A DNA stretch of 64,000 nucleotides, taken from assembly GCA_031459385.1 (NCBI GenBank), contig JAVKIP010000008.1, positions 32,001-96,000 of the forward strand, read 5' to 3'. How positions within the stretch are numbered: the first letter of the stretch is position 1; each line of letters starts with the position of its first letter. The notes beneath the pieces are model-generated. The model ran no database searches and was not told where the DNA came from. It saw only the letters and a program-made list of their open reading frames with translations. The position numbers and the translations under genes are program-made. This document shows, piece by piece, positions 327 to 24,078 of this stretch. The stretch comes from Candidatus Fervidifonticultor secundus (GTDB lineage Bacteria > Sysuimicrobiota > Sysuimicrobiia > Sysuimicrobiales > Humicultoraceae).

Positions 327-1136
327 TCAGGCCGTGGCGCGCTCGGCCAGCCGGCGCAGCCGCTCGTGTGCCAGACGGGCCGCGCCCATGGCGCCGGCGT
401 AGACGCCCAGCGCGTCGGGCGGCACGCGGAACGTGACGTTCAGCGTCTCCTCCAGAGCCCGGCGCATGAGCGGCACGCGCGTCAGCCCGCCAGTCAGCGC
501 GTAGGCGGGCTCGGCCCGCAGGCGCTTCACCAGCTGGGCGGCCCGCTCGGCCAGGGCTACCAGCGCGCCGGCGCAGACGTCCTCGGGGCTGCGGCCCGCC
601 ACCAGGTGGTTGATGACCTCGCTCTCGGCGAACACGGCGCAGATGCTGGAGACGACGGCAGGGGCGGTGGCGGCATCGGCCAGCCGCGCGATGTCGGCGG
701 GCTCGTAGCCCATGTACCGCACGGTCTTTTCGAGGAAGGCCCCGCTGCCCGCCGCGCACTTGTCGTTGAGGCGGAACGTCTTCACCCGCCCCCGCTCGTC
801 CAGGCGGATCGCCTTCACGTTCTGCCCGCCGATGTCCAGGACTGTGCGCACGTCGGGGTAGAGGCCGTGGATCGCCCATGCCTGTGCCGTCAGGTCGGTG
901 ACCGCTACGTCCCGCAACGGCACCATGTGGCGGCCGTAGCCCGTGGCCGCGACGTACGCCACGTCCTCGCGCCGGCACCCTGCGGCCTCCAGCGCCGCCT
1001 CCAGCGCCCGCTCGGCGGCCCGCGCGAAGTTGAAGCCGCTGGCGACCATCGCCCGCCCCACGATGGCGCCCGCGCCGTTGGCCAGCACCACCTTGGTGTA
1101 CGATGCGCCGGCGTCGATGCCGGCGGTCAGCGTCAC
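327..1136 (-). CDS. bcrD: Class I benzoyl-CoA reductase ATPase/activase subunit (BcrD-like)
   Basis: ASKHA motifs [30 protein letters not shown] and [12 protein letters not shown]. The GTG start overlaps the upstream stop (GTGA). Fourth gene of a CBAD-order cluster. Confidence 0.8.
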
Positions 1137-1975
1137 GGCCCGTCCCCTCCTGCGGCGGGCACCCCGGCCGGCAGCGCCGCGGGGGCCGGCCCGCCGGCTG
1201 TGATGTGGTCCAGCGCGAACAGGGCCGCGCCGATGGCCCCGCAGTAGTGCGACTCGTCGCTGACGTTCACCGGCGCCCCCACCATCTCGCCGATGAGCTT
1301 GACCATGGCCACGTTGCGCGACACGCCGCCAGTGAAGGTGAGCTCGGGGTGGATGCCCACCCGGCGGACCAGGGAGATGCTGCGGGCGGCGATGGCGGCG
1401 TGCACGCCCATCAAGACGTCTTCGACCTTCCGCCCCCGCGCCAGCCACCCCAGGATCTCCGACTCGGCGAACACGGTGCAGGTGTTCGTGATAGCCACCG
1501 GGTGCCGGGCGGTGAGCGCCAGCGGCCCCAGCTCGCCCAGCGGGAGGTCCAGGGCCGCCGACGCCGCACCCAGGAAGCGCCCGGTGCCGGCCGAGCACTT
1601 GTCGTTCATGCAGAAGTCGAGCACCTGGCCCGCCTCGCCAACGCGGATCGCCTTGGTGTCCTGGCCGCCGATGTCGAGCACGGTGCGCGTGCCGGGGAAG
1701 AGGAAGACCGCGCCCCGGGCATGGCAGGAGATCTCGGTGACCTGCGTGTGGCCGAACTCCACGCGGAAGCGGCCGTAGCCTGTGCCCACGATGTAGGCCA
1801 CGGTGCGCTCGCTCACATCGGCGTCCTCCAGGGCCAGCTGGAACGCCTGCCGGGCGGCCTCGGTGAGGCGAGCGCCGGTGTCCACGATGCCACGACCCAG
1901 GATGCGCCGCTGCGGGTGCAGGACGACCGCTTTGGTCTGCGTGGACCCCACGTCGACCCCGGCGACGACGGTCAC
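1133..1975 (-). CDS. bcrA: Class I benzoyl-CoA reductase ATPase/activase subunit (short BcrA/BzdQ-like)
   Basis: Motifs [45 protein letters not shown] and TCTVFAESE. About 280 aa. Confidence 0.8.
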
Positions 1976-1979
1976 GACC

Positions 1980-3269
1980 TCACCTCCCCGCGCCGACCTT
2001 GCGGGCGGCCAGCGCCTCGAAGAACGCGTCCACCCGGTTCTTGATCTGCGCGTCCGACCACAGCCGCGCGTCGACCAGGTCGGACTGGATGAACAGCCCC
2101 GGCACGTCGTGCTGGATGCGCAGCCACTCCCGCACGTCGGGCAGACCGGTGGAGGTGGTCCGGCACGACTTGACGCCGTGGAGGCAGATGCCGTCCACGG
2201 CCCAGTCGCGCACCGCACCGGCGAGCCACTCCTGGGGATAGAACATCGAGCCGGTGAAGCCCCACCAGGCCGCCTGGAGCATCTGCTCGGCCAGGCTCTC
2301 CAGGGGGCGCGCCAGGTCGTAGCCGAAGCCCGGGATGAACCCGCCCCCGGCGAAGATCATGTAGGTGCTGAGCACGAAGACGCCGCCCCACGACTCGAAC
2401 AGTTCCACGAACCGCTTGAAGTGCGTGTAGCATGCGGTCCCCGCCAGGAGCAGCCGGAACTTCTCGTCGGCCACGGTGCCCAGGCCCAGGCGCACGCGCT
2501 CGCGCAGTTCGTCCCGGGCCAGCGCGAAGAACCGGGTGCCCTCCGGGGTACCCCGGTACAGGTTGGCGATTCCCTGGTAAGTGATGCCCTCGCGGGCCGC
2601 GTTGAACGGCGCTGGCCGCTGGCGGTTGAGCGCCAGCACCTCGTGGTAGGCGGTGGCCATGCGGTTCGTCTCGGCCATGGCCTCGCGGAGCCGGTCGATG
2701 TCGAAGGGCCGGCCCGTGACCCGCTCGCACAGTGCGATCAACTCGCGCAGCTGCCCTTCCACGTAGCGGCGGTCGCTCTGGAAGGCCGGGTCAGCGGGGT
2801 CAGGCGTCGCGCCGCCGCCGCGCCAGGCCGGCAGGTCCAGCACGAAGACCGGGCACCGGTAGTAGTGCTCCCAGAACTCCGCCCACTTGACGTAGGTGTT
2901 GCACATGTTGGTGACCAGGACCAGCGCGGGGGGCGGCACGCGGCCGTGGGGGTGCTCGCCGCCCTTGAGCTGCAGCCCCACGTCCACCTTGACGTAGCCG
3001 CAGATATCCGGGGAGAAGCCGTAGTCCTCTGCGGCCTGCAGGTACGTCATGGACTGCCCGCGTACCGCGGTCTGCAGCGCGGTGACCTCAGGGAAGTTGA
3101 TGACGAAGTCGAAGACCCGCAGGATCTCGTTGAAGGAGCCCATCACGAAGACGTAGGCGGCAGGCCGGCCGCCGCCTGCCGCGCCGGTCATCTCCTGCCA
3201 CCAGCCATCCAGCAGCCGGCGGCTCTCCTTGCGGGTGGCGCCGACCAGGTCCTGGGCCTGCGTGGTCAT
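1980..3269 (-). CDS. bcrB: Benzoyl-CoA reductase subunit B (HgdB/BcrB family)
   Basis: Cys motifs DICGYVK, NMCNTY and GVKSCR, and C-terminal [25 protein letters not shown]. Lies between bcrC and two activase genes. Confidence 0.8.
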
Positions 3270-3284
3270 CGTCGGTCCCCGTCC

Positions 3285-4445
3285 TCAGGCGAACTCGAAG
3301 AGCAGCGACTCGGCAAACGTCTCGACCTGGATCCCGACCTGCTCGAAGGTCGCCATCGTCTCTTCGAACTCCAGCACCAGGTAGGGCACCCCGGCGGCCT
3401 CCAGCGCGCGGGTGTAGTGCACCTGCTCTTCCAGCCCGGGCTCGCACATCTTGGGTGCCGCGACGATGACGGCGTCGGCGCCCGCGTCGCGCACCCGCTG
3501 GAGCAGCATCTCGGCTTTGGGCTTGCGCGGATCGTGTTGCACCGGGCTGTAGCTGGACGCGTTCAGGTAGGCCCACGCCAGGTTGGCCAGCGGGTCGCCG
3601 TCGGTGGCGACGTCGTCCTGCAGCCAGCGCAGCCCGATGAGGAGGTCGTCGTCGACGATGTAGCAGGCGTCCTGGATCACGGCCAGCATGTCCAGCGGCG
3701 GCTGCTCGCAGTAGCCACCCTCGAAGACCACGCGGATGCGGTCCTGCCGCCGGGCCGGCCGCTGCGGCACCAGGTCCAGAACGCGCCGCAGCAGCTCGTT
3801 GTGGGCTTCCCGCGGCATCACCGCGCCCGCGCGGGCCAGCACGTAGGCCTCCAGCGCCGACAGCAGCCAGGGCGTCTCGCGCTTGACGCGGTAGAGCGCG
3901 CGCAGCAGGCGGCGGTTCTCGTTGAACAGCGCGATGCTGGCCCGCAGTCCGTCGGCGGTGACCGTCCGGCCGGTGGTCTGCTCGATCAGCCGCAGCACCC
4001 GCCCGTACTCGCCGGCGAGGTAGTCTACCGCGTGCGGGGAGGCGGCGTTCTGCGGGAGGTAGAGCACCTGGGTGGTCAGGTGGGGGAAGTTGCGGACCCA
4101 CACCCCGCAAGCGTTGCGCACCGCGTCGCAGATCGAGGGGATGACGAAGAGCGAGAGGAAGTCCAGGCGGCCCGACAGCGCCAGCTCGAGGGACGAGCGA
4201 ACGATGGAACAGACGAAGGCAGCGATGCGGGCGTCGGCCTGGCGAATCTGGACGGTGCTGCCCGCCCCCATGATCTTCACGGGCAGCATCCCGGCGGCGT
4301 GGGCGAGTTCCTCGGGAAAGTAGACCTGGAAGTGGCCCAGGACCCTGCCCTCGGGATGGTCAGCCAGCCAGCGTCGGACCGCGGGGAAACTCGGATCCTC
4401 GACCAGAGCCCGGCAGTCGTCGATGATGCGCTCCAGGTCACCCAT
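3285..4445 (-). CDS. bcrC: Benzoyl-CoA reductase subunit C
   Basis: Motifs VYFPEELAHAAGMLP, PSICD, LPQN, GGYCEQPPL and CYIVDDD. Length (386 aa) and motifs resemble Thauera-type BcrC as I recall it. Confidence 0.85.
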   Translation of the reverse strand: MGDLERIIDDCRALVEDPSFPAVRRWLADHPEGRVLGHFQVYFPEELAHAAGMLPVKIMGAGSTVQIRQADARIAAFVCSIVRSSLELALSGRLDFLSLFVIPSICDAVRNACGVWVRNFPHLTTQVLYLPQNAASPHAVDYLAGEYGRVLRLIEQTTGRTVTADGLRASIALFNENRRLLRALYRVKRETPWLLSALEAYVLARAGAVMPREAHNELLRRVLDLVPQRPARRQDRIRVVFEGGYCEQPPLDMLAVIQDACYIVDDDLLIGLRWLQDDVATDGDPLANLAWAYLNASSYSPVQHDPRKPKAEMLLQRVRDAGADAVIVAAPKMCEPGLEEQVHYTRALEAAGVPYLVLEFEETMATFEQVGIQVETFAESLLFEFA

Positions 4446-4543
4446 CGAGATCTCCCTGGCCCCCCATGTGCCGTCCGACCCGCCGGCCGGTCTCCGGTGC
4501 GGGCCCCTGGCAGGCCATGCCGCCCTGTCCTTTGCCCTCTCTT

Positions 4544-4563
4544 TTAACTGACCGGTCAGTCAA
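4544..4563. promoter_or_regulatory. Palindromic operator candidate upstream of bcrC (TetR-type)
   Basis: Perfect 14-bp palindrome ACTGACCGGTCAGT at 4547-4560, extending as TT-A-...-C-AA, in the bcrC leader. Confidence 0.6.
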
Positions 4564-5750
4564 CGTCCATCGGGTGGAGAACCGATTTTGCACAGCCTGA
4601 CGAAGGCATAGCCCTCCATCAACCGACGGGCAGTCCTGGCGTATGCGGCCCGGAGGACCTGCCAGTCTCCCCTAGGCCCCGGCCGCGCATCCGCCGCTAC
4701 GACCATGATGCCGCTGGGATGTCCAAGGCGGATGCGGTCTCCCCCGCCCGTCCGGGCCACCGCGGCCGGTACGCTCCCCGGGAGCACGGCAGCGACGGCG
4801 GCACACGCGGCCGCCGTTCCGGGGAACGCCTTGTGCAGCACAGGCGGTCGCCCGCCCGCCAGGCGGACCAGCAGGTCGACCGACCGGGCCTCCACGGTGG
4901 CACCCCGTAGGGTGGCAAACGGGGCGGGCGGCGCTACCGCCACCGGCAGTGGCACAAGACCGTCACGGGGCACACCCAGCCGGCCCGCCGCTGCCTCCTT
5001 GACGGCCATCATCGCCTCCAGCATGCGTGCGGTGAACGTCTGCGGCCCCTCGGTGCCGCTCATGCCCGCGGCCCGGGCCGGGAAGAAGACGCAGAGGTTG
5101 GCCAGGTCCACGATGGTGACCTCTACCGGACCGAGTCCTGCGACCGGGAGGACATCGCGCACGGCTCCGGTGGGGAGGAGACGGCCCGTGGCGGCGCCGG
5201 CGGCGCCGGCGAAGTCCAGCAGGATCTCCGCCCCTGGATCCGGCACACCGTCCACGACGCAGTCGCCTTCAACGGCCGGACGGCCGCTGCGAACCGGCAC
5301 CAGCGCCGTGTAGACCTTTCCGGTGTTGGTGTTGTGCACCCGCACCGGCGTCAGCGGCTCGGCCGGCCGCACGAACCCTTCTTCGACGGCGTATACGCCC
5401 ACGGCAGCCGAGAGATTGCCGCAGTTGATGTCGTAGTCGACCACCGGCTCGGTGATGCTGACCTGGCCAAAGGTGTAGTCCACGTCGGCGTCGGGGCGCG
5501 TGGGGGGGCCGATGATCGCCACCTTGCTGGTGAGGATGTCGGCACCGCCCAGCCCGTCGATCTGGCGGGGGTCAGGGCTGCCGAACAGCGCCAGAATCAC
5601 GCGGTCGCGCAGGGCCGGGTCGGCTGGCAGGTCGCCGGTTCGCAGGAAGACGCCCTTGCTGGTACCTCCGCGCATGAGCACGCACCGGACCGGCACCTGC
5701 TCGCCGACCATCGGCAGTGCCGCGGGGGAGGCCCGAACGGCCCGCGCCAC
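4560..5750 (-). CDS. PrpF/Mii-family allylic or cis-trans isomerase (methylitaconate/methylaconitate isomerase-like)
   Basis: Motifs MRGGTSKG, GSPDPRQIDGLGGADILTSKVA, NCGN, GHPSG and RTARRLMEG. RBS AAGGAGG lies before GTG 5750. Confidence 0.9.
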   Translation of the reverse strand: MARAVRASPAALPMVGEQVPVRCVLMRGGTSKGVFLRTGDLPADPALRDRVILALFGSPDPRQIDGLGGADILTSKVAIIGPPTRPDADVDYTFGQVSITEPVVDYDINCGNLSAAVGVYAVEEGFVRPAEPLTPVRVHNTNTGKVYTALVPVRSGRPAVEGDCVVDGVPDPGAEILLDFAGAAGAATGRLLPTGAVRDVLPVAGLGPVEVTIVDLANLCVFFPARAAGMSGTEGPQTFTARMLEAMMAVKEAAAGRLGVPRDGLVPLPVAVAPPAPFATLRGATVEARSVDLLVRLAGGRPPVLHKAFPGTAAACAAVAAVLPGSVPAAVARTGGGDRIRLGHPSGIMVVAADARPGPRGDWQVLRAAYARTARRLMEGYAFVRLCKIGSPPDGR

Positions 5751-5821
5751 GACGTCCACCTCCTTGTCTGTTCCTCCAAATGGCGCCCGGTGGCCCCGGT
5801 CGGGACCGTGCGCCGGGCGGT

Positions 5822-6964
5822 TTATGCGGCGGCGATCAGCACCGTGCACGCCGCGCCCTCGATGCCTGCGGCTTTGCCCCCGCGGCAGTGAGCCAGACCC
5901 ACCCGCGCCCGGGCGATCTGGCGGGCGCCGGCCTCGCCGCGGATCTGGCGGACGAGTTCGACCACCTGCGCCACGCCGGTCGCCCCCAGCGGATGTCCCT
6001 TGCCCAGCAGGCCGCCGCTGGGGTTGATCGGGCGCCGGCCGCCCAGCGACGCTTCCCCGCGCTCCAGCGCGGCCGGGTAGGCTCCCGGCGGCCACAGCCC
6101 CAGCCCTTCTACCCGCAGGATCTCCGCGATGGAGAAGCAGTCGTGGACCTCGGCAAAGTCGACGTCGTCGGGGCCCACGCCGGCCTGCTCGTAGGCCACC
6201 CGGGCGGTGCGCGCCGTGAGCTCCTCGAACGCCATCGAGCCAGGAGTGGCCTCCACGGCCCCAGTCTGCAGGGCGGCCGCCCGCAGCCGCACGGTGCGGC
6301 TGCGGCCCACCTGGTCCGCCACCCGGTCGCTGCACAAAATCGCGGCGGCGGCGCCGTCGCTCACCGGGGAGCAGTCCAGCAGGCCCAGGGGATCGGCGAT
6401 CGGCCGCGCGCCCAGCACCTCCTCCAGCGTCACGGCTTTCTGGAACTGGGCGAGGGGGTTGCAGCTGGCGTTGTGTTTGTTCTTAACCGACACCAGGGCG
6501 ATCTGCCGGCGGGTGGTGCCGAACTCGGCCATGTGGCGTCGCGCGCGCATGGCGTAGACCGCCGGCATCGTGAGGCCCACGGCCGCCTCCAGGTCGTCCT
6601 CGCCAGGGGTGAGCGCGCCGCGGAAGCGCGACGTCAGGTGCTCGACGCCCACCGCCAGAACCACGTCGTGAGCTCCCGCGGCGATGGCCAGCGCGGCCTC
6701 GCGGACGGCGACGGCGCCGCTGCTGCAGGCGTCTTCCACGTTGGTCAGCGGGATGCCGGCCAGTCCCACCTGCGCCAGGACCCGCTGGCCGGTCACCATA
6801 CCCTGGAAGACGTGCCCGCAGTAGGCGGCCTCGATGCGCCGCGGGTCGATGCCGGCATCGCGGACGGCCTCCAGCACCGCATCTGCGCCCAGGTCGACCG
6901 CTGTGCGGTCGGTGTGCTTGCCGAACTTCGTCATGCCCACGCCGAGGATCCAGACCTCACCCAT
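5822..6964 (-). CDS. SCP2-type thiolase, BbsB (benzoylsuccinyl-CoA thiolase)-like
   Basis: Motifs NVEDACSSG (catalytic Cys), YAMRAR, EVHDCF, GHPLGATG and C-terminal HCRGG...EGAACT. Paired with a DUF35 gene. Confidence 0.85.
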   Translation of the reverse strand: MGEVWILGVGMTKFGKHTDRTAVDLGADAVLEAVRDAGIDPRRIEAAYCGHVFQGMVTGQRVLAQVGLAGIPLTNVEDACSSGAVAVREAALAIAAGAHDVVLAVGVEHLTSRFRGALTPGEDDLEAAVGLTMPAVYAMRARRHMAEFGTTRRQIALVSVKNKHNASCNPLAQFQKAVTLEEVLGARPIADPLGLLDCSPVSDGAAAAILCSDRVADQVGRSRTVRLRAAALQTGAVEATPGSMAFEELTARTARVAYEQAGVGPDDVDFAEVHDCFSIAEILRVEGLGLWPPGAYPAALERGEASLGGRRPINPSGGLLGKGHPLGATGVAQVVELVRQIRGEAGARQIARARVGLAHCRGGKAAGIEGAACTVLIAAA

Positions 6965-7436
6965 CGCGCACCTCCCTCGCCACGTCCTGTCCGTGGGGGA
7001 CCTGGCACGGGTAGCCCCGGTAGGCCAGCACCGGCCGGCCATCGGACGTCGCCCGCACGGGCTCGACGCGGAGGTCCACCGGTGCGCCGATGCGGACGTC
7101 GCTCGGGTCGATGTCGGCCAGGGGCGCCAGGACCCGTACGCCGTCGGGCAGGTCGACGTATGCCAGGACGTAGGGCGTGGGGAACTCCGGCGTCGACTGG
7201 TGCACCACGGTGTAGGTGTAGACGGTGCCGCGCGAGGACAGGCCGACGACCTCCAGGTCGGTGGCCAGACATCGCGCGCAGACCAGACGACGCGGGAAGT
7301 AGCAGGCCCCGCAGCGCGGGCAGCGGCTGCCCGCCAGGCGCAGCCGCCCGCCCTCGTCAGGCACGAACAGCCCCGGCCGCAGAGGGACCGGCGCTGCAGC
7401 CGTCGCCGCCTGGTGCGCGGCCGCCGGTTCGCTCAC
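6957..7436 (-). CDS. DUF35 Zn-ribbon/OB-fold thiolase partner (BbsA-like)
   Basis: Zinc ribbon CPRCG...CARC followed by the OB-fold segment GTVYTYTVVH...PYVLAYVDL. Overlaps the thiolase start. Confidence 0.9.
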   Translation of the reverse strand: MSEPAAAHQAATAAAPVPLRPGLFVPDEGGRLRLAGSRCPRCGACYFPRRLVCARCLATDLEVVGLSSRGTVYTYTVVHQSTPEFPTPYVLAYVDLPDGVRVLAPLADIDPSDVRIGAPVDLRVEPVRATSDGRPVLAYRGYPCQVPHGQDVAREVRDG

Positions 7437-7437
7437 C

Positions 7438-8214
7438 TCAGATCACCTCCACCAGGCGCCACCGGGACGCGGCACGCTCCACCGCCCGCAGCGCCGCGTC
7501 GATGGCCCAGATCATGGCCAGCAGCACGGTCAGACCCGCCAGGACATCACGGGCGTTGAACATCGACTGAGCGAACGCCACCACCACCCCTACGCCGCGG
7601 GAGGCGCCGACGTACTCCCCGACGATGGTCCCGGCCAGGGCAAACCCCATGGTGACGCGCACGGTGCCCAGCAGCCACACCGCCACGGCCGGCAGGTAGA
7701 CGTGCCACAGCAACTGGACGCGGCGGGCGCCGAGCACACGGGCGGCGTGCACCACGTCGCGGTCCACCGCGGTGACCGCGGCATGGGTGTTGAACGCGGC
7801 CACGAAGAAGACCAGGGTGACGACCAGGACGATGCGGGGCGCCGCGCCCACACCCAGCCACAGCACCAGGAGCGGGTAGAGGATCACGCGCGGGACGGCG
7901 TTGCCGGCGGCCAGGAATGGCAGCACGATGCGAGTGGCCCGGGGCGAGGCAGCCAGGGCCCCACCGACCGCGGCACCCAGCGCCACCCCCAGCGCCAGTC
8001 CGCTTAAGGTCACGGCCAGCGTGGCGGTCACGTGCGGCAAAATGTAGCCCGAGGCCACCCAGGCGGCCGCCCGAACCAGGATCGCCGACGGGGTGCTCAC
8101 GTAGAACGGGTCGATGGCCCCCGCGCGCACCCCGGCCTCCCACGCAGACAGCAGGCCGGCCGCAGTGGCCACCCGCGCCAGAGCCAGGAGCGCCCGCCGG
8201 CTAGGTGCGCCCAT
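7438..8214 (-). CDS. NitT/TauT-family ABC transporter permease
   Basis: Hydrophobic, with an EAA-like loop (AARVLGA) and the segment IVGEYVGASRGVG. Confidence 0.9.
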   Translation of the reverse strand: MGAPSRRALLALARVATAAGLLSAWEAGVRAGAIDPFYVSTPSAILVRAAAWVASGYILPHVTATLAVTLSGLALGVALGAAVGGALAASPRATRIVLPFLAAGNAVPRVILYPLLVLWLGVGAAPRIVLVVTLVFFVAAFNTHAAVTAVDRDVVHAARVLGARRVQLLWHVYLPAVAVWLLGTVRVTMGFALAGTIVGEYVGASRGVGVVVAFAQSMFNARDVLAGLTVLLAMIWAIDAALRAVERAASRWRLVEVI

Positions 8215-10891: not shown

Positions 10892-10951
10892 CGCGCTCAC
10901 CTCCAGGATCGGTGCCGGCGCGCACCATCTGGCGCGTCAGCCGGCCCAGGG

Positions 10952-17040: not shown

Positions 17041-17885
17041 CGTCCCACCCCGGCCGCGGCCCGCGCGTGCACCGTGATGGCGAACTCCGGGCACAGCCAT
17101 TCGCACAGGCGGCATCCCGTGCACCGCTCGTGCGCGACGACCTCCACCGCCCCGCGGCCGTCCGGGCGCAGGATGCTCTCGGGGCAGACGCGCACGCAGA
17201 TGTCGCACGCCTTGCACCAGTTGGCCGCGACCGCCACGCGCCACGCCGCGCCGGGGCCCGGGGGCAGCCACCGCTCGGCCGACGGCAGCGGACGCGGCTC
17301 CAGCCGCCGGCCCTCCTCGAACGCCCGTCGGTTGACCGCGACGGTCCCTGGCGGCACGCACCGCTCGATGGCTTCTTCCCACAGCGCGGCAGGGAACTCG
17401 AGGTAGGTGGACAACGCGCCCAGCAGAATGGTGTTGGCCACCGCCGGCGTGCCCAGTGCCATGGCCAGATCGCGGGCGTCGGCAACCACCACCGGCCCGC
17501 GGTGCCGCGCCAGCGGCGCGGGGTCCAGCTCAGGGTAGCGCACGGTCCAGGCGCGGTGGTCCTGCTGCGCCGCCGGCGGCACGATGCGCGTCGGGTCGAT
17601 GACGAGCAGCCCGCCCGACCGCAGGTAGGGCAGCCAGCGCAGGCCCTCGGCCCATTCGAACGCCACGAGCGCGTCGGCCTCGCCGAGCCCGATCAGCGGG
17701 CTCCACACGACCTCGCCGAACCGCACGTGGCTGAACACCACGCCGCCGCGTTTGGCCATGCCGTGGACCTCGCTCTTCTTGACGTCCAGCCCCGCCGCCC
17801 GTGCCACCTCGCCCAGGACGGTGCTGGCCAGCAGCACGCCCTGGCCGCCGACGCCCACAAGCAGCACGCCCTGCGCCGCCGTCAC
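17037..17885 (-). CDS. iorB: Indolepyruvate/arylpyruvate:ferredoxin oxidoreductase beta subunit fused to a C-terminal 2x[4Fe-4S] (KorD-like) ferredoxin
   Basis: IorB motifs GVGGQG and KKSEVHGMAKRGG, followed in frame by CKACDICVRVCP and CTGCRLCEWLCPEFAI. Confidence 0.85.
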   Translation of the reverse strand: MTAAQGVLLVGVGGQGVLLASTVLGEVARAAGLDVKKSEVHGMAKRGGVVFSHVRFGEVVWSPLIGLGEADALVAFEWAEGLRWLPYLRSGGLLVIDPTRIVPPAAQQDHRAWTVRYPELDPAPLARHRGPVVVADARDLAMALGTPAVANTILLGALSTYLEFPAALWEEAIERCVPPGTVAVNRRAFEEGRRLEPRPLPSAERWLPPGPGAAWRVAVAANWCKACDICVRVCPESILRPDGRGAVEVVAHERCTGCRLCEWLCPEFAITVHARAAAGVGR

Positions 17886-19705
17886 GGCCCCGCACCGTCG
17901 CCCGCGCGGGCCGGGGTGATCGCCCCGGCCGGGCACAGCTGGGAGCACACCGTGCACCCCATGCACAGGCTGGCGTCGATGCCCACTTTGGGGCGCCCCT
18001 CGTACCACTGCGGGATCCAGGCGATCGCCGGGCAGCCCAGCGCCATGCACGCCTGGCAGGCGGTGCAGGCGTCGGGGACCACGGCCAGGGGGCGAGTGCG
18101 GATCTTCACCGGCGACTCCACGCACGGACGGTTGGTGATGACCACCGAGACCCCGGGGTAGGACAGGGCGGCCTCCAGTGCCCGATAGGTCGCCCCGACG
18201 TCGTAGGGGTCGACCACCTCTACCCAGTCGACGCCCAGTGCGCGGCAAAGCGCGGCCAGGTCGACGCGGGGCGCGGGCGCGCCGCGGATCGTCTGGCCTG
18301 TGGCCGGATGCGGCTGGCCGCCGGTCATGGCCGTGGTGCCGTTGTCGAGGATGAGCACGGTGATCGGCGTCTGGTTGTAGACGGCGTCCAGCAGGGCCGG
18401 CAGGCCTGCGTGGAGGAACGTCGAGTCGCCGATGGCGGCCACCACGCGGCCGTCGACACCGCCCGAGCGTGCCAGGCCCATGGCCACGCCGATGCTGGCT
18501 CCCATGGCCAGGCAGGTGTCCATGGCCGCCAGCGGCTGCAATGCTGCCAGCGTGTAGCACCCGATGTCGCCCGCCACCACCGCGCCCAGCCGGCGCAGCG
18601 CCAGGAAGGGCATGGCGTGGGGGCAGCCCGGGCACAGCACCGGCGGCCGGGGCGCATCCGGCGCCTGCAGCGGCGCGGGCCCGGGCCGCGACTGCAGGAC
18701 CCCGGCGCGGATGAACCCCTCGCGGACCACCTCGGGCGTCAGCTCGCCCGTGCGGGGGAAGAACGCCTTACCTTCCACTGTCAGACCCGCCGCCCGCAGT
18801 TCTTCCTCGACGAGCGGGTCCAGTTCCTCGACGACGATGAGGCGGTCGACCGCAGTGGCGAAGGCACGGATGCGCTGAAGCGGCAGCGGGTACGAGAAGC
18901 CCAGCTTCAGGACGCTGGCTTCCGGTAGGACCTCGCGGACGTAGTGGTACGCGCCGCCTGCGACCACCACGCCTACCCGGCGGTCGCGCATCTCCACGGC
19001 GGTGAGCGGTGATGCCTCCGACGCCTCGGCCAGGCGCCGCAGGCGCTCCAGCAACACGGGGTGGCGGGAGCGGGCGTGGGCCGGCAGCATGACCCAGCGG
19101 CCGGGATCCCTGTGGAAGCCCAGGGGTGGCCGCGCGCGGCGCTCGCCCACCTCCACCAGACCACACCCGTGGCTGATGCGGGTCGTCGTGCGAAGCAGCA
19201 CCGGCACCTCGAACGCCTCGCTGAGGTCGAAGGCGGCCAGCGTGAACGTCCGTGCCTCGGCGGGGTCGGCCGGCTCCAGCAGCGGCAGGCCGGCGAAGCG
19301 GGCGTAGTGGCGGTTGTCCTGTTCGTTCTGGGAACTGTGCATGCCGGGGTCGTCGGCCGAGACGATGACGCACCCGGCCGGCGTGCCGGTGTAGCCCAGC
19401 ACCATCAGCGTATCGGCCGCCACGTTGAGGCCCACGTGCTTGGTGGTCACCAGGGCCCGGGCGCCGCCCAGAGCCGCGCCCACCGCGACGTCCAGCGCCA
19501 CCTTCTCGTTGGTCGACCACTCGACGTAGACGTCGTCGTAGACAGCCAGCGCCTCCAGGATCTCGGTGCTGGGCGTGCCGGGATAGCCTGCGGCGACCTG
19601 GACGCCCGCCTCCCAGGCGCCGCGGGCCAGGGCATGGTTGCCCAGCAGCAGCGCCCGGCGGACGGTGGTGCCGGGGGGTGTGGTGCGAGGAGGCGCGCCG
19701 ACCAC
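17882..19705 (-). CDS. iorA: Indolepyruvate/arylpyruvate:ferredoxin oxidoreductase alpha subunit
   Basis: Motifs GYPGTPSTEI, NEKVALD, KHVGLNVAAD, DDPGMHSSQNEQD, LCPGCPH, GDIGCY and GDSTFLHAG, plus C-terminal ferredoxin motifs. Confidence 0.95.
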   Translation of the reverse strand: MVGAPPRTTPPGTTVRRALLLGNHALARGAWEAGVQVAAGYPGTPSTEILEALAVYDDVYVEWSTNEKVALDVAVGAALGGARALVTTKHVGLNVAADTLMVLGYTGTPAGCVIVSADDPGMHSSQNEQDNRHYARFAGLPLLEPADPAEARTFTLAAFDLSEAFEVPVLLRTTTRISHGCGLVEVGERRARPPLGFHRDPGRWVMLPAHARSRHPVLLERLRRLAEASEASPLTAVEMRDRRVGVVVAGGAYHYVREVLPEASVLKLGFSYPLPLQRIRAFATAVDRLIVVEELDPLVEEELRAAGLTVEGKAFFPRTGELTPEVVREGFIRAGVLQSRPGPAPLQAPDAPRPPVLCPGCPHAMPFLALRRLGAVVAGDIGCYTLAALQPLAAMDTCLAMGASIGVAMGLARSGGVDGRVVAAIGDSTFLHAGLPALLDAVYNQTPITVLILDNGTTAMTGGQPHPATGQTIRGAPAPRVDLAALCRALGVDWVEVVDPYDVGATYRALEAALSYPGVSVVITNRPCVESPVKIRTRPLAVVPDACTACQACMALGCPAIAWIPQWYEGRPKVGIDASLCMGCTVCSQLCPAGAITPARAGDGAGP

Positions 19706-19715: not shown

Positions 19716-20942
19716 CTACGAGGCCTGCGCGACCAGGAGGCCCAAGATCTCCTCGTCGCGCAGGACGCGGTGGCTGGCCTTGGCCAGGTCGAGGATGCGG
19801 GCGACCAGGTGCGGGTCAGGCGCGATCCCGTGCCGCTCGCACCACCACAGCACGTTGGCCTGCCCGCTCATGGGGCCGATGGTGATCACCTGCTCCCGGC
19901 CCACCGCCTCGGCCGGCACGCCGCTGTAGACACGGTTGGCCAGCCAGTGGTCGCCCTTGTGCATCGCCTTGCGCACGGCGGCGGCGTGCACGCCGGTGCT
20001 GGTCTCGAACGCGTCCTTGCCCACCACCGGCGTGTTGGGCAGCACCGGCAGGCCCACGGCCTCGGCCACCACGCGGCAGTACTCGGGCAGCGCCCGCAGG
20101 TCCGCCTCCAGCCACCCCAGGAGCACCAGGTTGACCAGCAAGAGCTCCATACTGGTGTTGCCCACCCGCTCGCCGATGCCCAGGGCGCACCCGTGCAGGC
20201 GGTCGGCGCCCGCCCCCGCCGCCACCAGGCTGTTGATGACGTCCAGCCCCCGGTCGCGGTGGCCGTGCCAGTCCAGCAAGACGTCGTCCCCCAGCACCCG
20301 GCGCATGTACCGCACCAGGCGAGCCGTACCCCACGGCGTGGCGTGACCCACTGTGTCGGCCAGGCACACGCGGGCGGCGCCGGCGTCCACGGCGGCCCGG
20401 TAGATGCGCCGCAGGTGGGCGGGCCGGGCGCGAGTGGTGTCCTCGGTGACGAACATCACCTCCAGCCCGCACCGGCGCGCGAAGCGCACCGCCGCCTCGG
20501 TTGTGCGCAGCAGGAACTCCAGGTCCCAGTCCTCGACGTATTGACGGATGGGGCTCGAGCCCAGGAAGATGGCGGCGTCGATTCCCACCCCGGCGCGCTG
20601 CTGGGCCTCCGCAATGGGCGCGATGTCGGCTTCCGCGGTACGCCCCGCGCAGTTGGGCCGAATGCGCAGACGCGCGTCGCGGATCTCCCGTGCCAGGACC
20701 ACCACGTCGTTCAGGGCGTGGCGGCTGGCGGCCGGGTAACCGATGTTGGCGCCGTGGATGCCCAGGCGGTCCATCAGATGCAGGATCGCCACCTTGCGCT
20801 CCACCGGCGGGTGCACCACGGAGGGGCTCTGCAGTCCATCCCGCAGCGTCTCGTCGTTGACCTGCACCAGACGGCGCGGCGCGAGCCGCCGCGTGCCCGG
20901 CGCGTTCCAGTCGAAGATCAGGTCGCCTGTGCGGCCACCCAT
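19716..20942 (-). CDS. LeuA/homocitrate-synthase-like (DRE-TIM) acetyl-CoA condensing enzyme without a regulatory domain; candidate benzylmalate synthase
   Basis: Motifs DETLRDGLQ, EDTTRA, LADTVG, HGHRDRG and GIGERVGN, plus the post-catalytic subdomain GVHAAA...VYS...IGPMSG. 408 aa. Confidence 0.8.
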   Translation of the reverse strand: MGGRTGDLIFDWNAPGTRRLAPRRLVQVNDETLRDGLQSPSVVHPPVERKVAILHLMDRLGIHGANIGYPAASRHALNDVVVLAREIRDARLRIRPNCAGRTAEADIAPIAEAQQRAGVGIDAAIFLGSSPIRQYVEDWDLEFLLRTTEAAVRFARRCGLEVMFVTEDTTRARPAHLRRIYRAAVDAGAARVCLADTVGHATPWGTARLVRYMRRVLGDDVLLDWHGHRDRGLDVINSLVAAGAGADRLHGCALGIGERVGNTSMELLLVNLVLLGWLEADLRALPEYCRVVAEAVGLPVLPNTPVVGKDAFETSTGVHAAAVRKAMHKGDHWLANRVYSGVPAEAVGREQVITIGPMSGQANVLWWCERHGIAPDPHLVARILDLAKASHRVLRDEEILGLLVAQAS

Positions 20943-20946
20943 GGGC

Positions 20947-22242
20947 TTACCTCCTCACCCGCCGGTCCACGACCCGCACGGCCTTCCCGTCGCTGCGTGG
21001 CAGCTGGCGCGGTGGCAACACGGTCACCGCGGCAGCGAGCCCCAGCGCGTCCCGCAGCGCCTGCCGCAGGCGCTCGGCCAGGGCGCGGTAGTGCGCGGGG
21101 GAGGTATCGGCCCGCGCCTCCACCTGCACCTCCAGCACGTCCAGCCCCCGCGCCCGGTCCACCACCAGCTGGTACTGCGGGGCCAGATCGGGCAGCGAAC
21201 CCAGCACCGTCTCGACCTCAGAGGGAAACACGTTGACGCCGCGGATGACCAGCATGTCGTCGATGCGGCCGGCCACCCGCGTCATGCGCACGTGGGTGCG
21301 GCCGCAGACGCACGGCTCGGGCACCAGCGCCGCGATGTCTCCGGTGCGGTAGCGCAGCAGCGGCGTTGCCTCCCGGGTGAGGGTGGTGAGGACCAGTTCC
21401 CCGCGCTGGCCGGGCGGCAGCGGGGTGCCGGTCGCCGGATCGATCACCTCGGGCAGGAAATGGTCCTCGTGGACGTGCAGGCCAGCGCGGGCCTCGCACT
21501 CAGCGGCCACGCCCGGCCCGATCACCTCGCTCAGCCCGTAGAAGTCCGCCGCGCGCAGCCCCAGGCGCCGCTCGATCTCTGCGCGTGTTTCCTCGCACCA
21601 CGGCTCGGCCCCGAATAGCCCGCACCGGAGGCGCAGCGGGCCTCCGGTGGATTCTTCCACGACCTCGGCCAGGTGCAGCGCATAGGAGGGGGTGCACGCC
21701 AGCGCCGTGGCGCCGAACTCGCGCAGCAGCCTGACCTGACGGGCGGTGTTCCCCGTGGAGGTGGGCAGCACGCGGGCGCCCAGCCGCAGCGCGCCGTAGT
21801 GGAAGCCGAGCCCGCCGGTGAACAGGCCGTAGCCGTAGGCGTTCTGGATCAGGTCGCCCGGCCGCACCCCGGCGGCGGTCAGTGACCGCGCCATCACCTC
21901 GGCCCACACGTCGAGGTCGGCGCGCGTGTAGCCGGTTGCAGTCGGGTAGCCCGTGGTGCCCGACGAGCAGTGGAGCTCCACTACCTCCTCCGGCGGGCAG
22001 GCGAAGTGGCCGAACGGGTAGAGGCGACGCAGGTCGGCCTTGGTCGTGAACGGCAGTCGCGGCAGGTCGGCGATGCCGCGGACCTCCTCGGGCGTGAGGC
22101 CAGCGGCGGCCAGTCGCTCGCGGTAGAACGGCACACGCGCCCACACCCGGGCGACGACCTGGCGCAGGCGCTGGTCCTGCAGCCGGACCAGCTCTCCGCG
22201 CGGCGCTGCTTCGGCTGCCGGGTCCCACAGCACGCTGCTCAC
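20947..22242 (-). CDS. paaK: Phenylacetate-CoA ligase (copy 1)
   Basis: Motifs HCSSGTTG, NAYGYGLFTGGLG, CTPSY, GAEPW, YGLSEVIGPGV, RYRTGD and DDMLVIRGVNVFP. Confidence 0.9.
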   Translation of the reverse strand: MSSVLWDPAAEAAPRGELVRLQDQRLRQVVARVWARVPFYRERLAAAGLTPEEVRGIADLPRLPFTTKADLRRLYPFGHFACPPEEVVELHCSSGTTGYPTATGYTRADLDVWAEVMARSLTAAGVRPGDLIQNAYGYGLFTGGLGFHYGALRLGARVLPTSTGNTARQVRLLREFGATALACTPSYALHLAEVVEESTGGPLRLRCGLFGAEPWCEETRAEIERRLGLRAADFYGLSEVIGPGVAAECEARAGLHVHEDHFLPEVIDPATGTPLPPGQRGELVLTTLTREATPLLRYRTGDIAALVPEPCVCGRTHVRMTRVAGRIDDMLVIRGVNVFPSEVETVLGSLPDLAPQYQLVVDRARGLDVLEVQVEARADTSPAHYRALAERLRQALRDALGLAAAVTVLPPRQLPRSDGKAVRVVDRRVRR

Positions 22243-22802
22243 GCGCTCACCCACCCCGTCCCGGCCCCTCCGGCGCGGCGGCGCAGCAGGGGTACGATGC
22301 CGCCGGCCTCGAGGATGGCCAGCATCTGCGGGGGCAGCGGCGACCCGGTCAGCACCTCGCCGGTCCGGAGGTTGTGCACGGTCCCCGCTGCCAGGTCGAC
22401 CTGAACCGGGTCGCCGTCGGTCACGGCGGCCGTTGCGCCTGGACAGGTCAGCACCGGCAGGCCGATGGCCACGGCGTTGCGCAGGAAGATACGGGCGAAC
22501 GACGCCGCCACCACGCACCCCACGCCCAGGGCCTGCAGCCCTTCGGGCGCGTGCTCGCGGCTGCTGCCGCACCCGAAGTTCTTCCCGGCGACCACCACGT
22601 CTCCGGGCCGTACCTCGGCGGCGAAGCGCGGGTTCACCGCCTCCAGCACGTGCCGCCGGCGCTCCTCCAGCGGCTCCACCGCGTAGGCGCCGGGCGCCAG
22701 CAAGTCGGTGCTGACGTCGTCGCCGAAACACCACGCGCGGCCGCGGATGGGGACCCGGAACGCGGGCGGGGTGCGCGGGGAGGGGGCATCACGAGCCGCC
22801 AT
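22239..22802 (-). CDS. LeuD/DmdB-like aconitase-family hydratase small subunit
   Basis: Motifs FGDDVSTD, AGKNFGCGSSREHA and SFARIFLRNA. Confidence 0.9.
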   Translation of the reverse strand: MAARDAPSPRTPPAFRVPIRGRAWCFGDDVSTDLLAPGAYAVEPLEERRRHVLEAVNPRFAAEVRPGDVVVAGKNFGCGSSREHAPEGLQALGVGCVVAASFARIFLRNAVAIGLPVLTCPGATAAVTDGDPVQVDLAAGTVHNLRTGEVLTGSPLPPQMLAILEAGGIVPLLRRRAGGAGTGWVSA

Positions 22803-22803
22803 C

Positions 22804-24078
22804 TCATTCCGCCGCCGCCGGCTGCAGCACACGCCGCGGGTCGGTGATGCGGCCGTACAGGGCGCTGGCCGCCACCGTGGCCGGCGAGGCCAGGTAGATC
22901 TCGGCCTGGGGACTTCCCATGCGGCCGGCGAAGTTCCGGTTGTGCGCGCCGATGCACCGTTCGCCCGGCGCGAGCAGGCCCAGGTGGCCGCCAAAACACG
23001 GCCCGCACCCGGAGGGCAGCAGGACCGCGCCCGCGTCGACCAGCACCTCCAGCACCCCCTCGGCCGCCGCCTGGCGCTCGACCTGGCGCGAGGCCGGGCC
23101 GATGAGCAGGCGCGTGTGGGGGTGGACACGGTGCCCGGCCAGGATGCGGGCGGCCACCCGCAGGTCCTCGATACGGCCGTTGGTGCACGAGCCGATGAAC
23201 GCCTGGTCGATGGGGACGTCTTCCACCTCATGCACCGGCCGGATGCGGTCGACCGCATGGGGCAGCGCGACCTGGGGGGCCAGGTCGTCGAGCTCCAGAG
23301 TGAGGCTGCGGATGTAGCGTGCGTCAGGGTCGGGACCGAATGGCGCCGCGTCGACCCCGCACCGCCGCAGGTGCGCGGTCGTCGTGGGGTCGGCGGCAAA
23401 CAGCCCGAACTTGGCGCCCAGCTCCACGGCCATGTTGGCCATGGTGAGGCGCCCGGCCATGTCGACGTCGTCGGCTGCCGGCCCGCCAAACTCCAGCGCC
23501 TGGTACTGCGCGCCGTCGGCGCCCAGCTGCCCGGCCAGGGCCAGGATGGCGTCTTTCCACATCACCGCCGGCCGCAGCCGCCCGACCATCTCCACGCGGA
23601 TGCTGTGCGGTACCTGCAGCCACAGTTCGCCCGTGGCCAGGACGTACGCCATCTCGGTAGTGCCGATGCCGGTGCCTCCGACCCCCAGGGCCCCGGCCGT
23701 CGTCGTGTGGGAGTCGGTGCCCAACAGCAGCCCGCCCGGCGGCGCCAGCCCGCGCTCTGCCACCAGCTGGTGACAGATGCCGGAGCCCGCGTCGAAAAAA
23801 TGCGCGATGCCGAAGTCGCGGACATGGGCGCGGATCCGCCGGTGCACCTCGGCAGCGGCTACCGACGGCGCCGGGACCAGGTGGTCGATGACGACCGCCA
23901 CCTTCGTGCGATCCCATACGGCGAGCACGCCGGCATCGCGCAGCAGGTCGAAGACGGGAGCGGCGAAGATGTCGTGGAGGAGGGCAAGGTCGGGTCGGCC
24001 TACGACGAACTCGCCCGGGGACACGGCGGCGCGCCCCGATGCCCTGGCGAGGATCTTCTCGGCCATCGTCATGCCCAC
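22804..24078 (-). CDS. LeuC/DmdA/HacA-like aconitase-family hydratase large subunit
   Basis: Motifs MTMAEKIL, GICHQ, DSHT, IGSCTNGRIED, CGPCFG, NRNFAGRMG and LASP. Short (~424 aa) type. RBS GGAGG lies before GTG 24078. Confidence 0.9.
   Translation of the reverse strand: MGMTMAEKILARASGRAAVSPGEFVVGRPDLALLHDIFAAPVFDLLRDAGVLAVWDRTKVAVVIDHLVPAPSVAAAEVHRRIRAHVRDFGIAHFFDAGSGICHQLVAERGLAPPGGLLLGTDSHTTTAGALGVGGTGIGTTEMAYVLATGELWLQVPHSIRVEMVGRLRPAVMWKDAILALAGQLGADGAQYQALEFGGPAADDVDMAGRLTMANMAVELGAKFGLFAADPTTTAHLRRCGVDAAPFGPDPDARYIRSLTLELDDLAPQVALPHAVDRIRPVHEVEDVPIDQAFIGSCTNGRIEDLRVAARILAGHRVHPHTRLLIGPASRQVERQAAAEGVLEVLVDAGAVLLPSGCGPCFGGHLGLLAPGERCIGAHNRNFAGRMGSPQAEIYLASPATVAASALYGRITDPRRVLQPAAAE

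Follow-up and report, generated by a model that had tools for sequence, protein, structure and literature searches.

How might the side chain of an arylacetate be removed without oxygen and without molybdenum? Normal β-oxidation is blocked by the benzylic CH2 group and, to our knowledge, anaerobic side-chain removal from arylacetates is known only via the molybdenum enzyme PadBCD. The question is raised by an operon of Candidatus Fervidifonticultor secundus (Bacteria; Sysuimicrobiota; Sysuimicrobiia; Sysuimicrobiales; Humicultoraceae), which lies within a 64,000-nucleotide stretch of contig JAVKIP010000008.1 (positions 32,001 to 96,000 of the forward strand; GenBank assembly GCA_031459385.1). 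This whole stretch is referred to as the window, and coordinates are positions within it unless another locus is named. A preliminary description, made from the DNA alone, had read the genes between positions 327 and 24078 as a new path from phenylacetate or phenylpyruvate to benzoyl-CoA, passing through benzylmalate and phenylitaconate. We consider it reasonably probable that the operon encodes an oxygen-independent route by which arylpyruvates, and arylacetates by way of arylpyruvates, are converted into an aroyl-CoA and succinate. All of the enzyme families concerned are known; it is the architecture of the pathway that is new. No description of such a route was found in a full-text literature search whose coverage stopped short of subscription journals, and in the literature that was found benzylmalate occurs in biosynthetic, plant or polymer contexts only, with no link to phenylitaconate, Bbs-type enzymes or benzoyl-CoA.

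Operon architecture and the proposed route

The window has a GC content of 72%, and raw lists of its open reading frames are therefore full of spurious frames; genes were called from third-position GC, with subsequent confirmation by Pfam and NCBIfam domains, and their starts and junctions were taken from start-codon analysis. The closest characterised homologs were ranked by bit score against PDB structures, and NCBIfam scores are quoted as score/equivalog or family cut-off in bits. The operon consists of 24 co-oriented, tightly packed genes on the minus strand, extending from the start of a LeuC-like gene (24078) to the stop of a BcrD-like gene (327). Their order is LeuC-LeuD-PaaK-LeuA-IorA-IorB/Fd-KorA-KorB-KorC-TetR-CoAT-ECH-SDR-ABC (four genes)-DUF35-thiolase-PrpF-BcrCBAD, where Fd stands for ferredoxin, CoAT for CoA-transferase, ECH for enoyl-CoA hydratase and SDR for short-chain dehydrogenase/reductase. 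Start and stop codons overlap by 1–16 nt at 13 junctions, mostly in the 4-nt ATGA/GTGA manner, and the largest intergenic gap (114 nt) separates the PrpF-family gene, Mii-like as described below, from BcrC. The content, order, common orientation and translational coupling that had been described for the run are thus all recovered. Its ends also coincide with gene ends, but the operon is longer than had been described: it runs past position 327 into an Amidohydro_2 gene, on the same strand and 42 nt beyond BcrD (5′ part at 1–284), and then, outside the window, into genes for a BadH-like SDR and a hemerythrin. An isopropylmalate dehydrogenase (LeuB), an acyl-CoA dehydrogenase, a glycyl-radical enzyme and a molybdopterin enzyme are all missing from the 24 frames, in keeping with the earlier observation that the run contains no LeuB, BbsG, glycyl-radical synthase or molybdenum-dependent PadBCD (PadBCD was not searched for genome-wide). 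Furthermore, no Gly_radical domain was found in the host assembly, which is 3.30 Mb in size and 97.6% complete.

In the proposed scheme the PaaK-like ligase would activate phenylacetate, and IorAB would reductively carboxylate phenylacetyl-CoA to phenylpyruvate, using electrons from the oxidation of 2-oxoglutarate by KorABC that are passed on via the IorB-fused ferredoxin; an arylpyruvate derived from phenylalanine or tyrosine would enter directly at this point. The LeuA-like enzyme would then condense phenylpyruvate with acetyl-CoA to 2-benzylmalate, the LeuCD paralog would dehydrate 2-benzylmalate to benzylmaleate, and the Mii-like isomerase would shift the double bond to yield phenylitaconate (benzylidenesuccinate). 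From phenylitaconate and succinyl-CoA the family III CoA-transferase would form phenylitaconyl-CoA, which the crotonase, the BbsD-like SDR and the BbsAB-like DUF35/thiolase pair would convert to benzoyl-CoA and succinyl-CoA. Finally, a class I reductase resembling 3-methylbenzoyl-CoA reductase (MBR) would dearomatise benzoyl-CoA. The net product would be succinate, because the CoA-transferase step recycles succinyl-CoA, and the carbon of the scheme balances (C9 + C2 = C7 + C4). It follows from the scheme that neither LeuB nor a BbsG-type dehydrogenase is to be expected, as is seen. The parts of this proposal differ in their probability: that the product is (4-hydroxy)benzoyl-CoA is more probable than the core scheme itself, whereas a carboxylating, and hence reverse, IOR step is less probable than that core. 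Taken jointly, the combination of Ior-Kor transcarboxylation with C2 elongation, Mii-type isomerisation and dehydrogenase-free Bbs-like oxidation, with non-orthologous ring opening in the organism's own lineage, is put forward tentatively and is on balance doubtful.

Enzymes proposed for chain elongation, isomerisation and cleavage

Carbon–carbon bond formation is assigned to the LeuA-like 2-oxoacid:acetyl-CoA condensing enzyme (19716–20942; 408 aa; HMGL-like domain), a candidate (4-hydroxy)benzylmalate synthase; like all operon genes described below, it lies on the minus strand. The same genome carries a canonical ilvB-ilvC-leuA-leuC-leuD-cimA-leuB operon on another contig, of which LeuA, LeuC, CimA and LeuB score above the cut-offs of their NCBIfam equivalogs. 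The LeuA-like protein of the cluster is 31% identical to the canonical LeuA, the cluster LeuC is 43–44% identical to the two other LeuC copies of the genome, and the cluster LeuD is 45–50% identical to the other LeuD copies. Because a separate canonical leuABCD/cimA operon exists, the leuACD genes of the cluster are best regarded as dedicated paralogs, and the suspicion that they might be the only leuACD genes of the genome, with a leuB elsewhere, falls away. The LeuA-like enzyme scores below all LeuA, NifV and CimA cut-offs (best 197/517 for isopropylmalate synthase, IPMS, and 189/463 for NifV) and has no C-terminal regulatory domain; its catalytic motifs RDGxQ, HxH and GERxGN and the catalytic His are invariant in an alignment with the genome's own LeuA and CimA.

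The likely substrate of this enzyme can be approached through five specificity positions of HphA, the cyanobacterial 2-benzylmalate synthase. In the published account these are A73/D157/A159/M186/S242, as opposed to L/E/S/N/E in IPMS and H/R/T/S/H in homocitrate synthase (HCS), and an A73L mutation of HphA is stated there to increase IPMS-type activity 17-fold (PMC12961565). HMMER alignments to 6ktq and 3rmj place A99/M163/V165/C193/H250 of the LeuA-like enzyme at the five positions, with A99 opposite HphA A73, the IPMS Leu and the HCS His; the alignment to 3eeg is ambiguous at the first of them, with a gap opposite the IPMS Leu. This A/M/V/C/H signature is invariant in 37/37 LeuA-like orthologs and matches the pocket residues of neither IPMS nor HCS. 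Compared by published positions only, it has the Ala at the A73 site in common with HphA but differs at the other four (M/V/C/H here, D/A/M/S in HphA). Because the residue at the decisive site is small, and the charged or polar residues of IPMS and HCS give way to hydrophobic ones, the predicted pocket would fit a bulky, non-polar side chain. The homophenylalanine pathway of Nostoc punctiforme (HphA/HphCD) is alike in its LeuA-family condensation of (4-hydroxy)phenylpyruvate with acetyl-CoA followed by a LeuCD-type enzyme; it is biosynthetic, however, and employs the dehydrogenase HphB, which is absent from the cluster.

The LeuC-like large subunit of the aconitase-family (de)hydratase, the proposed 2-benzylmalate dehydratase (22804–24078; PF00330), scores above the NF001614/TIGR02086 subfamily cut-offs and below that of the LeuC equivalog, and the LeuD/DmdB-family small subunit (22239–22802; PF00694; TIGR02087 167 bits, cut-off 109) starts 1 nt past the LeuC stop. 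A LeuC ortholog (54–63% identity) is present in or near the cluster in four of five distant genomes tested. Elsewhere in the genome a third LeuCD pair (G000 C1, L083:4040-6707) adjoins a gene of the PrpB/methylisocitrate-lyase family (315/354) and an IclR/BhcR-like regulator, an arrangement that recalls dimethylmaleate hydratase and dimethylmalate lyase.

For the double-bond shift, the candidate benzylmaleate/phenylitaconate isomerase is the PrpF-family protein (4560–5759), the best PDB match of which is the δ-isomerase Mii (3g7k) with 355 bits, followed by PrpF with 231 and LigU with 185; on NCBIfam it reaches 250/441 for TIGR02334 (PrpF) and 294/440 for NF033377 (GalD-LigU). Its TSK and NCGN motifs align with Lys62 and Cys96 of Mii, which we take to be the catalytic residues of that enzyme (Mii numbering, positions counted on the alignment), and both residues are conserved, so that the Mii-like character proposed for the protein stands. 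In a quick maximum-likelihood tree (L025 left out, with a stop inside its high-scoring segment pair, HSP), a branch with 97% SH-aLRT support separates the Mii-like proteins of this cluster type, 58 in all, from a betaproteobacterial group and the nicotinate-fermentation Mii of locus L016. This locus of a Peptococcaceae metagenome-assembled genome (MAG) is an Eubacterium barkeri-type nicotinate cluster (L016:2708-13512) comprising a molybdenum hydroxylase, DmdAB-like LeuCD, a B12 mutase, Mii, MutL and a Dml-like lyase, and it offers a Mii reference defined by its context. In E. barkeri, as in the operon, a LeuCD-type hydratase (DmdAB) is paired with a PrpF-family 1,3-allylic isomerase, and the pair interconverts a substituted maleate and an alkylidene/methylene succinate, which is the chemistry proposed here; the flux would run the opposite way, from malate through maleate to itaconate type. 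The window isomerase is 50% identical to the L016 Mii and belongs to a separate clade, and its cluster is without the Mo hydroxylase, 2-methyleneglutarate mutase and Dml lyase of E. barkeri, a domain search for the last two having found neither in the window cluster and both in L016. One ortholog of the isomerase, in a relative of the same order (62% identity; G029:C23:94299-95432), contains a single in-frame TGA, which may reflect a sequencing error, decay into a pseudogene, or recoding.

The enzymes proposed to act on phenylitaconyl-CoA resemble those of anaerobic toluene degradation. The SCPx-type thiolase (5822–6964), a putative aroylsuccinyl-CoA thiolase, has BbsB as its top PDB match (7pxp_C, 279 bits; next 238) and scores 298/750 on the NCBIfam BbsB model. 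The adjacent gene, which overlaps it by 8 nt, encodes a DUF35 Zn-ribbon/OB protein (6957–7436; OB_ChsH2_C and zf-ChsH2), its likely BbsA-like partner, with BbsA as top PDB match (7pxp_A, 77 bits) and 88/250 on the BbsA model. Judged by these scores, both are homologs within the BbsA/BbsB subfamily rather than orthologs. The SDR (10952–11704), a predicted BbsD-like 3-hydroxyacyl-CoA dehydrogenase, matches BbsD (7pcs_B, 260 bits) above all FabG-type SDRs; no second SDR that might serve as a BbsC-type partner was found in the operon by domain search. The crotonase-family enoyl-CoA hydratase (11741–12529; ECH_1) to which the role of BbsH is assigned matches generic crotonases, with no BbsH structure among its PDB matches. 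As far as solved structures allow, the thiolase, the DUF35 protein and the SDR do group with Bbs proteins, as had been anticipated. The earlier comparison of the CoA-transferase with that of the toluene pathway holds in part. The family III enzyme (12536–13768; CoA_transf_3), a proposed succinyl-CoA:(aryl)itaconate CoA-transferase, is by its matches of the succinyl-CoA:dicarboxylate type (its best NCBIfam models, those for the succinate-glutarate and the succinyl-CoA:mesaconate transferase, are matched below their cut-offs), but its nearest structure is the succinate-hydroxymethylglutarate transferase SUGCT with 287 bits, against 172 for BbsF and 148 for BbsE.

The proposed last four steps are identical to those of the toluene route of Thauera, Aromatoleum and Geobacter (BbsEF, BbsG, BbsH, BbsCD and BbsAB): succinyl-CoA donates its CoA, phenylitaconyl-CoA is hydrated, the hydration product is oxidised to benzoylsuccinyl-CoA, and thiolysis releases benzoyl-CoA and succinyl-CoA. 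The toluene route starts with benzylsuccinate synthase and the BbsG dehydrogenase, neither of which is present in the cluster, whereas entry here would be at the enoyl level. It also uses a two-subunit BbsEF and both BbsC and BbsD, where the cluster has one CoA-transferase subunit and one SDR.

Entry of arylacetates would depend on the PaaK-like CoA ligase (20947–22254; AMP-binding and AMP-binding_C_2; best family TIGR02155, 506/646), the start of which overlaps the LeuD stop, and on two 2-oxoacid:ferredoxin oxidoreductases. IorA (17882–19705), the α-subunit of an indolepyruvate (arylpyruvate):ferredoxin oxidoreductase, passes its equivalog cut-off (TIGR03336, 702/651), and IorB (17037–17885; POR and Fer4) carries a C-terminal 2x[4Fe-4S] ferredoxin domain of OorD/KorD type, matched by both the IorB and OorD models; this fusion is found in 34/34 IorB homologs of related loci. 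The second enzyme is made up of the α-subunit KorA (15895–17040; NF006412, 539/411), the TPP-binding β-subunit KorB (14990–15898; TPP_enzyme_C; best model 2-oxoglutarate:ferredoxin oxidoreductase β, 270/364) and the γ-subunit KorC (14394–14993; POR; NF006323, 128/235). The possibility that these Ior and Kor genes represent PadEFGHI was rejected, KorA reaching only 71/700 on the PadG model. IorAB, KorABC and the IorB-fused ferredoxin domain always occur together and the two 2-oxoacid/acyl-CoA couples have similarly low redox potentials, so that arylacetyl-CoA could be reductively carboxylated at the expense of 2-oxoglutarate oxidation. KorABC may also, or instead, supply reduced ferredoxin to the aryl-CoA reductase, by analogy with korAB in Thauera. 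Of the opening originally envisaged, with PaaK followed by a carboxylating IOR, the genes for the PaaK-like ligase and IorAB are indeed present; the carboxylating direction is a surmise, and KorABC had been left without a role. The known phenylacetate route of Aromatoleum and Azoarcus (PadJ, PadBCD, PadEFGHI) likewise starts with a PaaK-type ligase, ends in benzoyl-CoA and includes a multi-subunit 2-oxoacid oxidoreductase. It differs in its use of molybdenum-dependent PadBCD, to which no gene of the cluster corresponds, in that KorA is not an ortholog of PadG, and in losing as CO2 the side-chain carbon that would here be kept as succinate. Outside the operon, a second PaaK-like ligase, 60% identical to the operon copy, is encoded on the plus strand (31513–33000) and lies between two Liv-type ABC importers that include Peripla_BP_6 binding proteins (26607–38339).

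Distribution, aromatic context and alternative readings

If the genes form one pathway, are they kept together elsewhere? The Mii-like protein was scanned against 185,579 species genomes, which gave 190 relatives; the window proteins were mapped onto the best 80 of these 190 loci, with flanks of ≤10 kb, and 51 of the 80 in which the Mii-like protein is at least 55% identical are referred to as ortholog loci, the other 29 being more distant. Among the 51 the thiolase was found in 48, DUF35 in 46, the LeuA-like enzyme in 33, IorA and the CoA-transferase in 28 each and KorA in 26, counts that are lower bounds because many contigs are short. LeuB homologs are absent from all 80 loci, and an acyl-CoA dehydrogenase occurs in just one of the 51, within a separate gene group, so that the expectation of conserved synteny without leuB or bbsG is borne out across phyla. 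Synteny of the gene set extends to dozens of MAGs in five phyla; by record title, the clade spans Actinomycetota (mostly Acidimicrobiia), Armatimonadota, Ca. Sysuimicrobiota, Bacillota and Acidobacteriota. In Acidimicrobiia, for which four contigs were extended, the order is LeuA-IorA-IorB-KorA-KorB-KorC-TetR-CoAT-ECH-SDR-LeuC-LeuD-LuxR, divergent from DUF35-Thl-Mii (Thl, thiolase); it is seen in three of the four, in full in L086 and from KorB to LuxR in L084 and L085, and the gaps in this operon are too small for hidden genes. Closer to the window genome, orthologs (at least 62% identity) are present in 5/30 relatives, a proportion that fits an accessory trait in its own lineage; a wider tally of 14/31 includes the unpublished genome G015.

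A reduced module of thiolase, SDR, CoA-transferase and crotonase with a divergent Mii-like gene is found in aerobic Betaproteobacteria (Variovorax, Cupriavidus, Pseudacidovorax and Noviherbaspirillum; loci L057, L060, L064-L067, L069, L071, L072, L075, L076, L080, L029 and L061), and its genes are 45–55% identical to those of the window. No LeuA-like ortholog was found in the five genomes with this module that were searched, and the surrounding genes, which encode TctC receptors, LysR/AraC regulators and efflux proteins, gave no clue to the substrate.

The ortholog loci often adjoin genes for the metabolism of aromatic CoA thioesters. One or more genes for Hcr, Had, Oah, BCR or benzoate-CoA ligase occur in 35/51 of them (HcrA in 20, Had in 17, Oah and BCR in 16 each) and in just 4/29 of the more distant loci. 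The position is often directly downstream of DUF35-thiolase-Mii: in L014 the Mii gene is followed by had (426/339), oah (578/464), a Dch-like crotonase and then bcrCBAD, and in L025, L053 and L062 by hcrA/B(/C)-like genes, of which HcrA scores 814–864 bits, below the cut-off of 995 but by far best in this family. Gene context and the LeuA-like pocket thus provide two independent lines of sequence evidence that the substrate is aromatic. Since 4-hydroxybenzoyl-CoA reductase-like genes follow the module in other genomes, the passage of tyrosine-derived 4-hydroxyphenyl substrates through the same route would fit there. In L053, which comes from an Acidimicrobiaceae MAG, a UbiD-family protein resembling the β-subunit of phenylphosphate carboxylase (414/469), two PEP-synthase-like genes and a distant PaaK-like ligase (L053:763-8149) look like a set for phenol carboxylation feeding 4-hydroxybenzoyl-CoA.

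In the operon itself, the context is provided by a putative class I ATP-dependent aryl-CoA reductase (327–4445), with BcrC-like (3285–4445), BcrB-like (1980–3269), BcrA-like (1133–1975) and BcrD-like (327–1136) subunits. Two HGD-D proteins and two different BcrAD_BadFG ATPase proteins, the latter short at 269 and 280 aa, correspond to the class I make-up, so that the four BcrCBAD genes originally named are there; all four proteins are nevertheless below the Bcr/Bzd equivalog cut-offs, and the nearest relative is 3-methylbenzoyl-CoA reductase. Among PDB structures the BcrC-like subunit scores 441 bits against MbdN of that enzyme, 159 against 2-hydroxyacyl-CoA dehydratase and 124 against BzdN, and a dehydratase reading of these genes was rejected on that difference. 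As in the class I systems of Thauera (bcrCBAD-fdx-korAB) and of MBR (Mbd), a four-subunit, ATP-dependent enzyme is accompanied in its cluster by kor genes and a ferredoxin domain; unlike in Thauera, the ferredoxin is fused to IorB, and the genes downstream of the reductase in this lineage encode Amidohydro_2 and a BadH-like SDR, not Had and Oah.

Ring opening in this lineage may differ from the known scheme, the 'BCR/Dch' continuation having been recovered in part. The MBR-like reductase is accompanied by a Dch-like crotonase upstream of the operon (25676–26524, minus strand; top family TIGR03189, cyclohexa-1,5-dienecarbonyl-CoA hydratase, 167/292.5), but Had and Oah are missing from the genome. 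A BadI-like match on contig C5 (321/468) may be MenB, no BadI being found above cut-off in the genome, and an ECH-rich region on contig C12, considered as a source of ring hydrolases, was set aside as it holds aerobic PaaF/G/H/J-like genes. A BadH-like SDR (292/431 bits in the window organism; genes after BcrD at L081:16100-18284) follows BcrD in L001, L008 and L050, and the trio of Amidohydro_2, SDR and hemerythrin recurs in L001; because the lineage lacks Had and Oah, these three may be non-orthologous replacements for ring processing. The genome also encodes aerobic PaaA, PaaF/G/H/J-like proteins, HpaB and cytochrome oxidase, whilst BoxB was not found in it. On account of these aerobic genes the host is taken to be at least a facultative aerobe, with the cluster as a second arylacetate route.

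A number of observations count against the proposed pathway. All enzyme roles are deduced from homology and gene context, and nearly all of the proteins score below the NCBIfam equivalogs (as with BbsB, BbsA, PaaK and PrpF above), so that they are relatives of the named enzymes and not orthologs. The crotonase resembles nothing specifically, the CoA-transferase is a single subunit nearer to SUGCT than to BbsEF, and the Mii tree comes from a fast search, with SH-aLRT values as its sole branch support. IOR is normally oxidative and, if it were so here, the LeuA-like enzyme would have a competitor for phenylpyruvate. The core occurs without Ior/Kor in three ortholog loci (L022, L046 and L054), and a close PaaK is missing from most Acidimicrobiia operons; because of this, arylpyruvate from transamination is suggested as the basic entry, with arylacetate optional. 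No aromatic-CoA gene is seen in the flanks of 16/51 ortholog loci, many of them on short contigs, although this does not apply to L004-L006, L011 and L022. Had and Oah above cut-off are lacking in the window organism's genome (best 100/339 and 112/464, respectively), Oah above cut-off is likewise absent from the five cluster-bearing relatives, and with aerobic PaaA and cytochrome oxidase in the genome anaerobic growth is not a given. None of the computational checks run as possible refutations went against the overall interpretation.

The alternative that survives best is that the operon is a mosaic, in which IorAB, PaaK and KorABC oxidise arylpyruvates and 2-oxoglutarate, their ferredoxin feeding the reductase as korAB does in Thauera, and the core degrades a non-aromatic 2-oxoacid or an alkylmaleate/alkylidenesuccinate (e.g. 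a branched-chain one) to a short acyl-CoA and succinyl-CoA. The core chemistry is indifferent to the R group, and both the three loci without Ior/Kor and the 16 without a flanking aromatic-CoA gene would be accommodated. The reduced module of the aerobic Betaproteobacteria, free of aromatic context, keeps a non-aromatic reading alive, and because it has no LeuA-like ortholog the back half of the pathway can act on other substituted maleates or itaconates. We nonetheless regard this alternative as rather unlikely, given that DUF35-Thl-Mii runs in the same direction straight into hcrCAB, had, oah or dch genes in many genomes, that IorA directly follows the LeuA-like gene, that in the LeuA-like enzyme Ala occupies the HphA A73 site and hydrophobic Met/Val take the place of charged or polar residues of IPMS and HCS, and that the nearest solved homologs, BbsB and BbsD, act on aromatic substrates.

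Much less probable is an α-oxidation resembling the methylcitrate cycle, in which the LeuA-like enzyme would condense phenylacetyl-CoA with oxaloacetate to a 'phenylcitrate', LeuCD and the PrpF-family protein would isomerise it, and phenylglyoxylate would be released for oxidative decarboxylation to benzoyl-CoA by the Kor-like enzyme. Such a route would also replace PadBCD, the AcnD/PrpF variant of the methylcitrate cycle likewise combines a PrpF-family protein with a dehydratase of the aconitase family, and it would call on two different 2-oxoacid:ferredoxin oxidoreductases, which are always present. The cluster contains no lyase of the PrpB/ICL family, though, its isomerase is much nearer to Mii than to PrpF, the low score of KorA on the PadG model speaks against a phenylglyoxylate dehydrogenase, and the CoA-transferase, crotonase, BbsD-like SDR and BbsAB-like thiolase would be left without roles. 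A phenyllactate/cinnamate pathway, with the HGD-D and BcrAD proteins as 2-hydroxyacyl-CoA dehydratase and activator, a FldA-like CoA-transferase, and crotonase, SDR and thiolase taking cinnamoyl-CoA to benzoyl-CoA and acetyl-CoA, is hardly credible: HGD-D and BcrAD_BadFG are families shared with such dehydratases and the HadB and HadC models do match secondarily, but the BcrC-like score favours the 3-methylbenzoyl-CoA reductase subunit, the two different ATPase subunits are of class I style, the DUF35/SCPx thiolase is BbsAB-like, and LeuA, LeuCD and Mii would have nothing to do.

Neighbouring genes and implications of the proposed route

The remaining genes of the operon encode regulation and transport. 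A TetR-family regulator (13765–14397; TetR_N and TetR_C_24) is translationally coupled through 4-nt overlaps on both sides and keeps the same position in related loci. The four genes of an NMT1/SsuA-type ABC importer (7438–10900; Pfam and NCBIfam) encode a binding protein (9818–10900), a permease (9036–9821), an ATPase (8201–9046) and a second permease (7438–8214), and the binding protein is also found in L001, L004, L005 and L011. Upstream of LeuC, and on the same strand, lie two PAS-domain regulators (24196–25664), a PAS-LuxR protein (24196–24873 or longer) and a Trans_reg_C-PAS protein (24870–25664); a homolog of the former (36–42% identity) closes the Acidimicrobiia operon after LeuD. Further along the window, 14 kb from the cluster and on the plus strand, is an aerobic 4-hydroxyphenylacetate-type set (38467–43426) of DHDPS-family, FAA-hydrolase-family, HpaB-type hydroxylase and extradiol dioxygenase genes. 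A 623-aa frame (57799–59670, plus strand) beside cytochrome c oxidase genes combines COX15/CtaA (heme A synthase) with UbiA/CtaB (heme O synthase) in an apparent fusion.

The operon thus has good support as a candidate for a new and widespread pathway, independent of both oxygen and molybdenum, from arylpyruvates and arylacetates to (4-hydroxy)benzoyl-CoA and succinate. It would solve the problem of the benzylic carbon with ordinary enzyme families, by adding C2, shifting the double bond and then applying a toluene-type β-oxidation, and would provide candidates for a catabolic benzylmalate synthase, a benzylmaleate isomerase and an IOR-KOR couple. Annotation pipelines label these genes leuA, leuCD, prpF and fabG, and Bbs-like modules are not markers of toluene degradation. 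If the proposal is true, side-chain carbon would be conserved as succinate, not lost as CO2, and phenylacetate, phenylalanine and tyrosine would have a third way of degradation beside PaaABCDE and PadBCD. The cluster is carried by dozens of uncultured species in five phyla, including many Acidimicrobiia that are abundant in marine, soil and sludge habitats, and the route could then explain much of the turnover of aromatic amino acids and arylacetates in low-oxygen habitats that annotation has missed.

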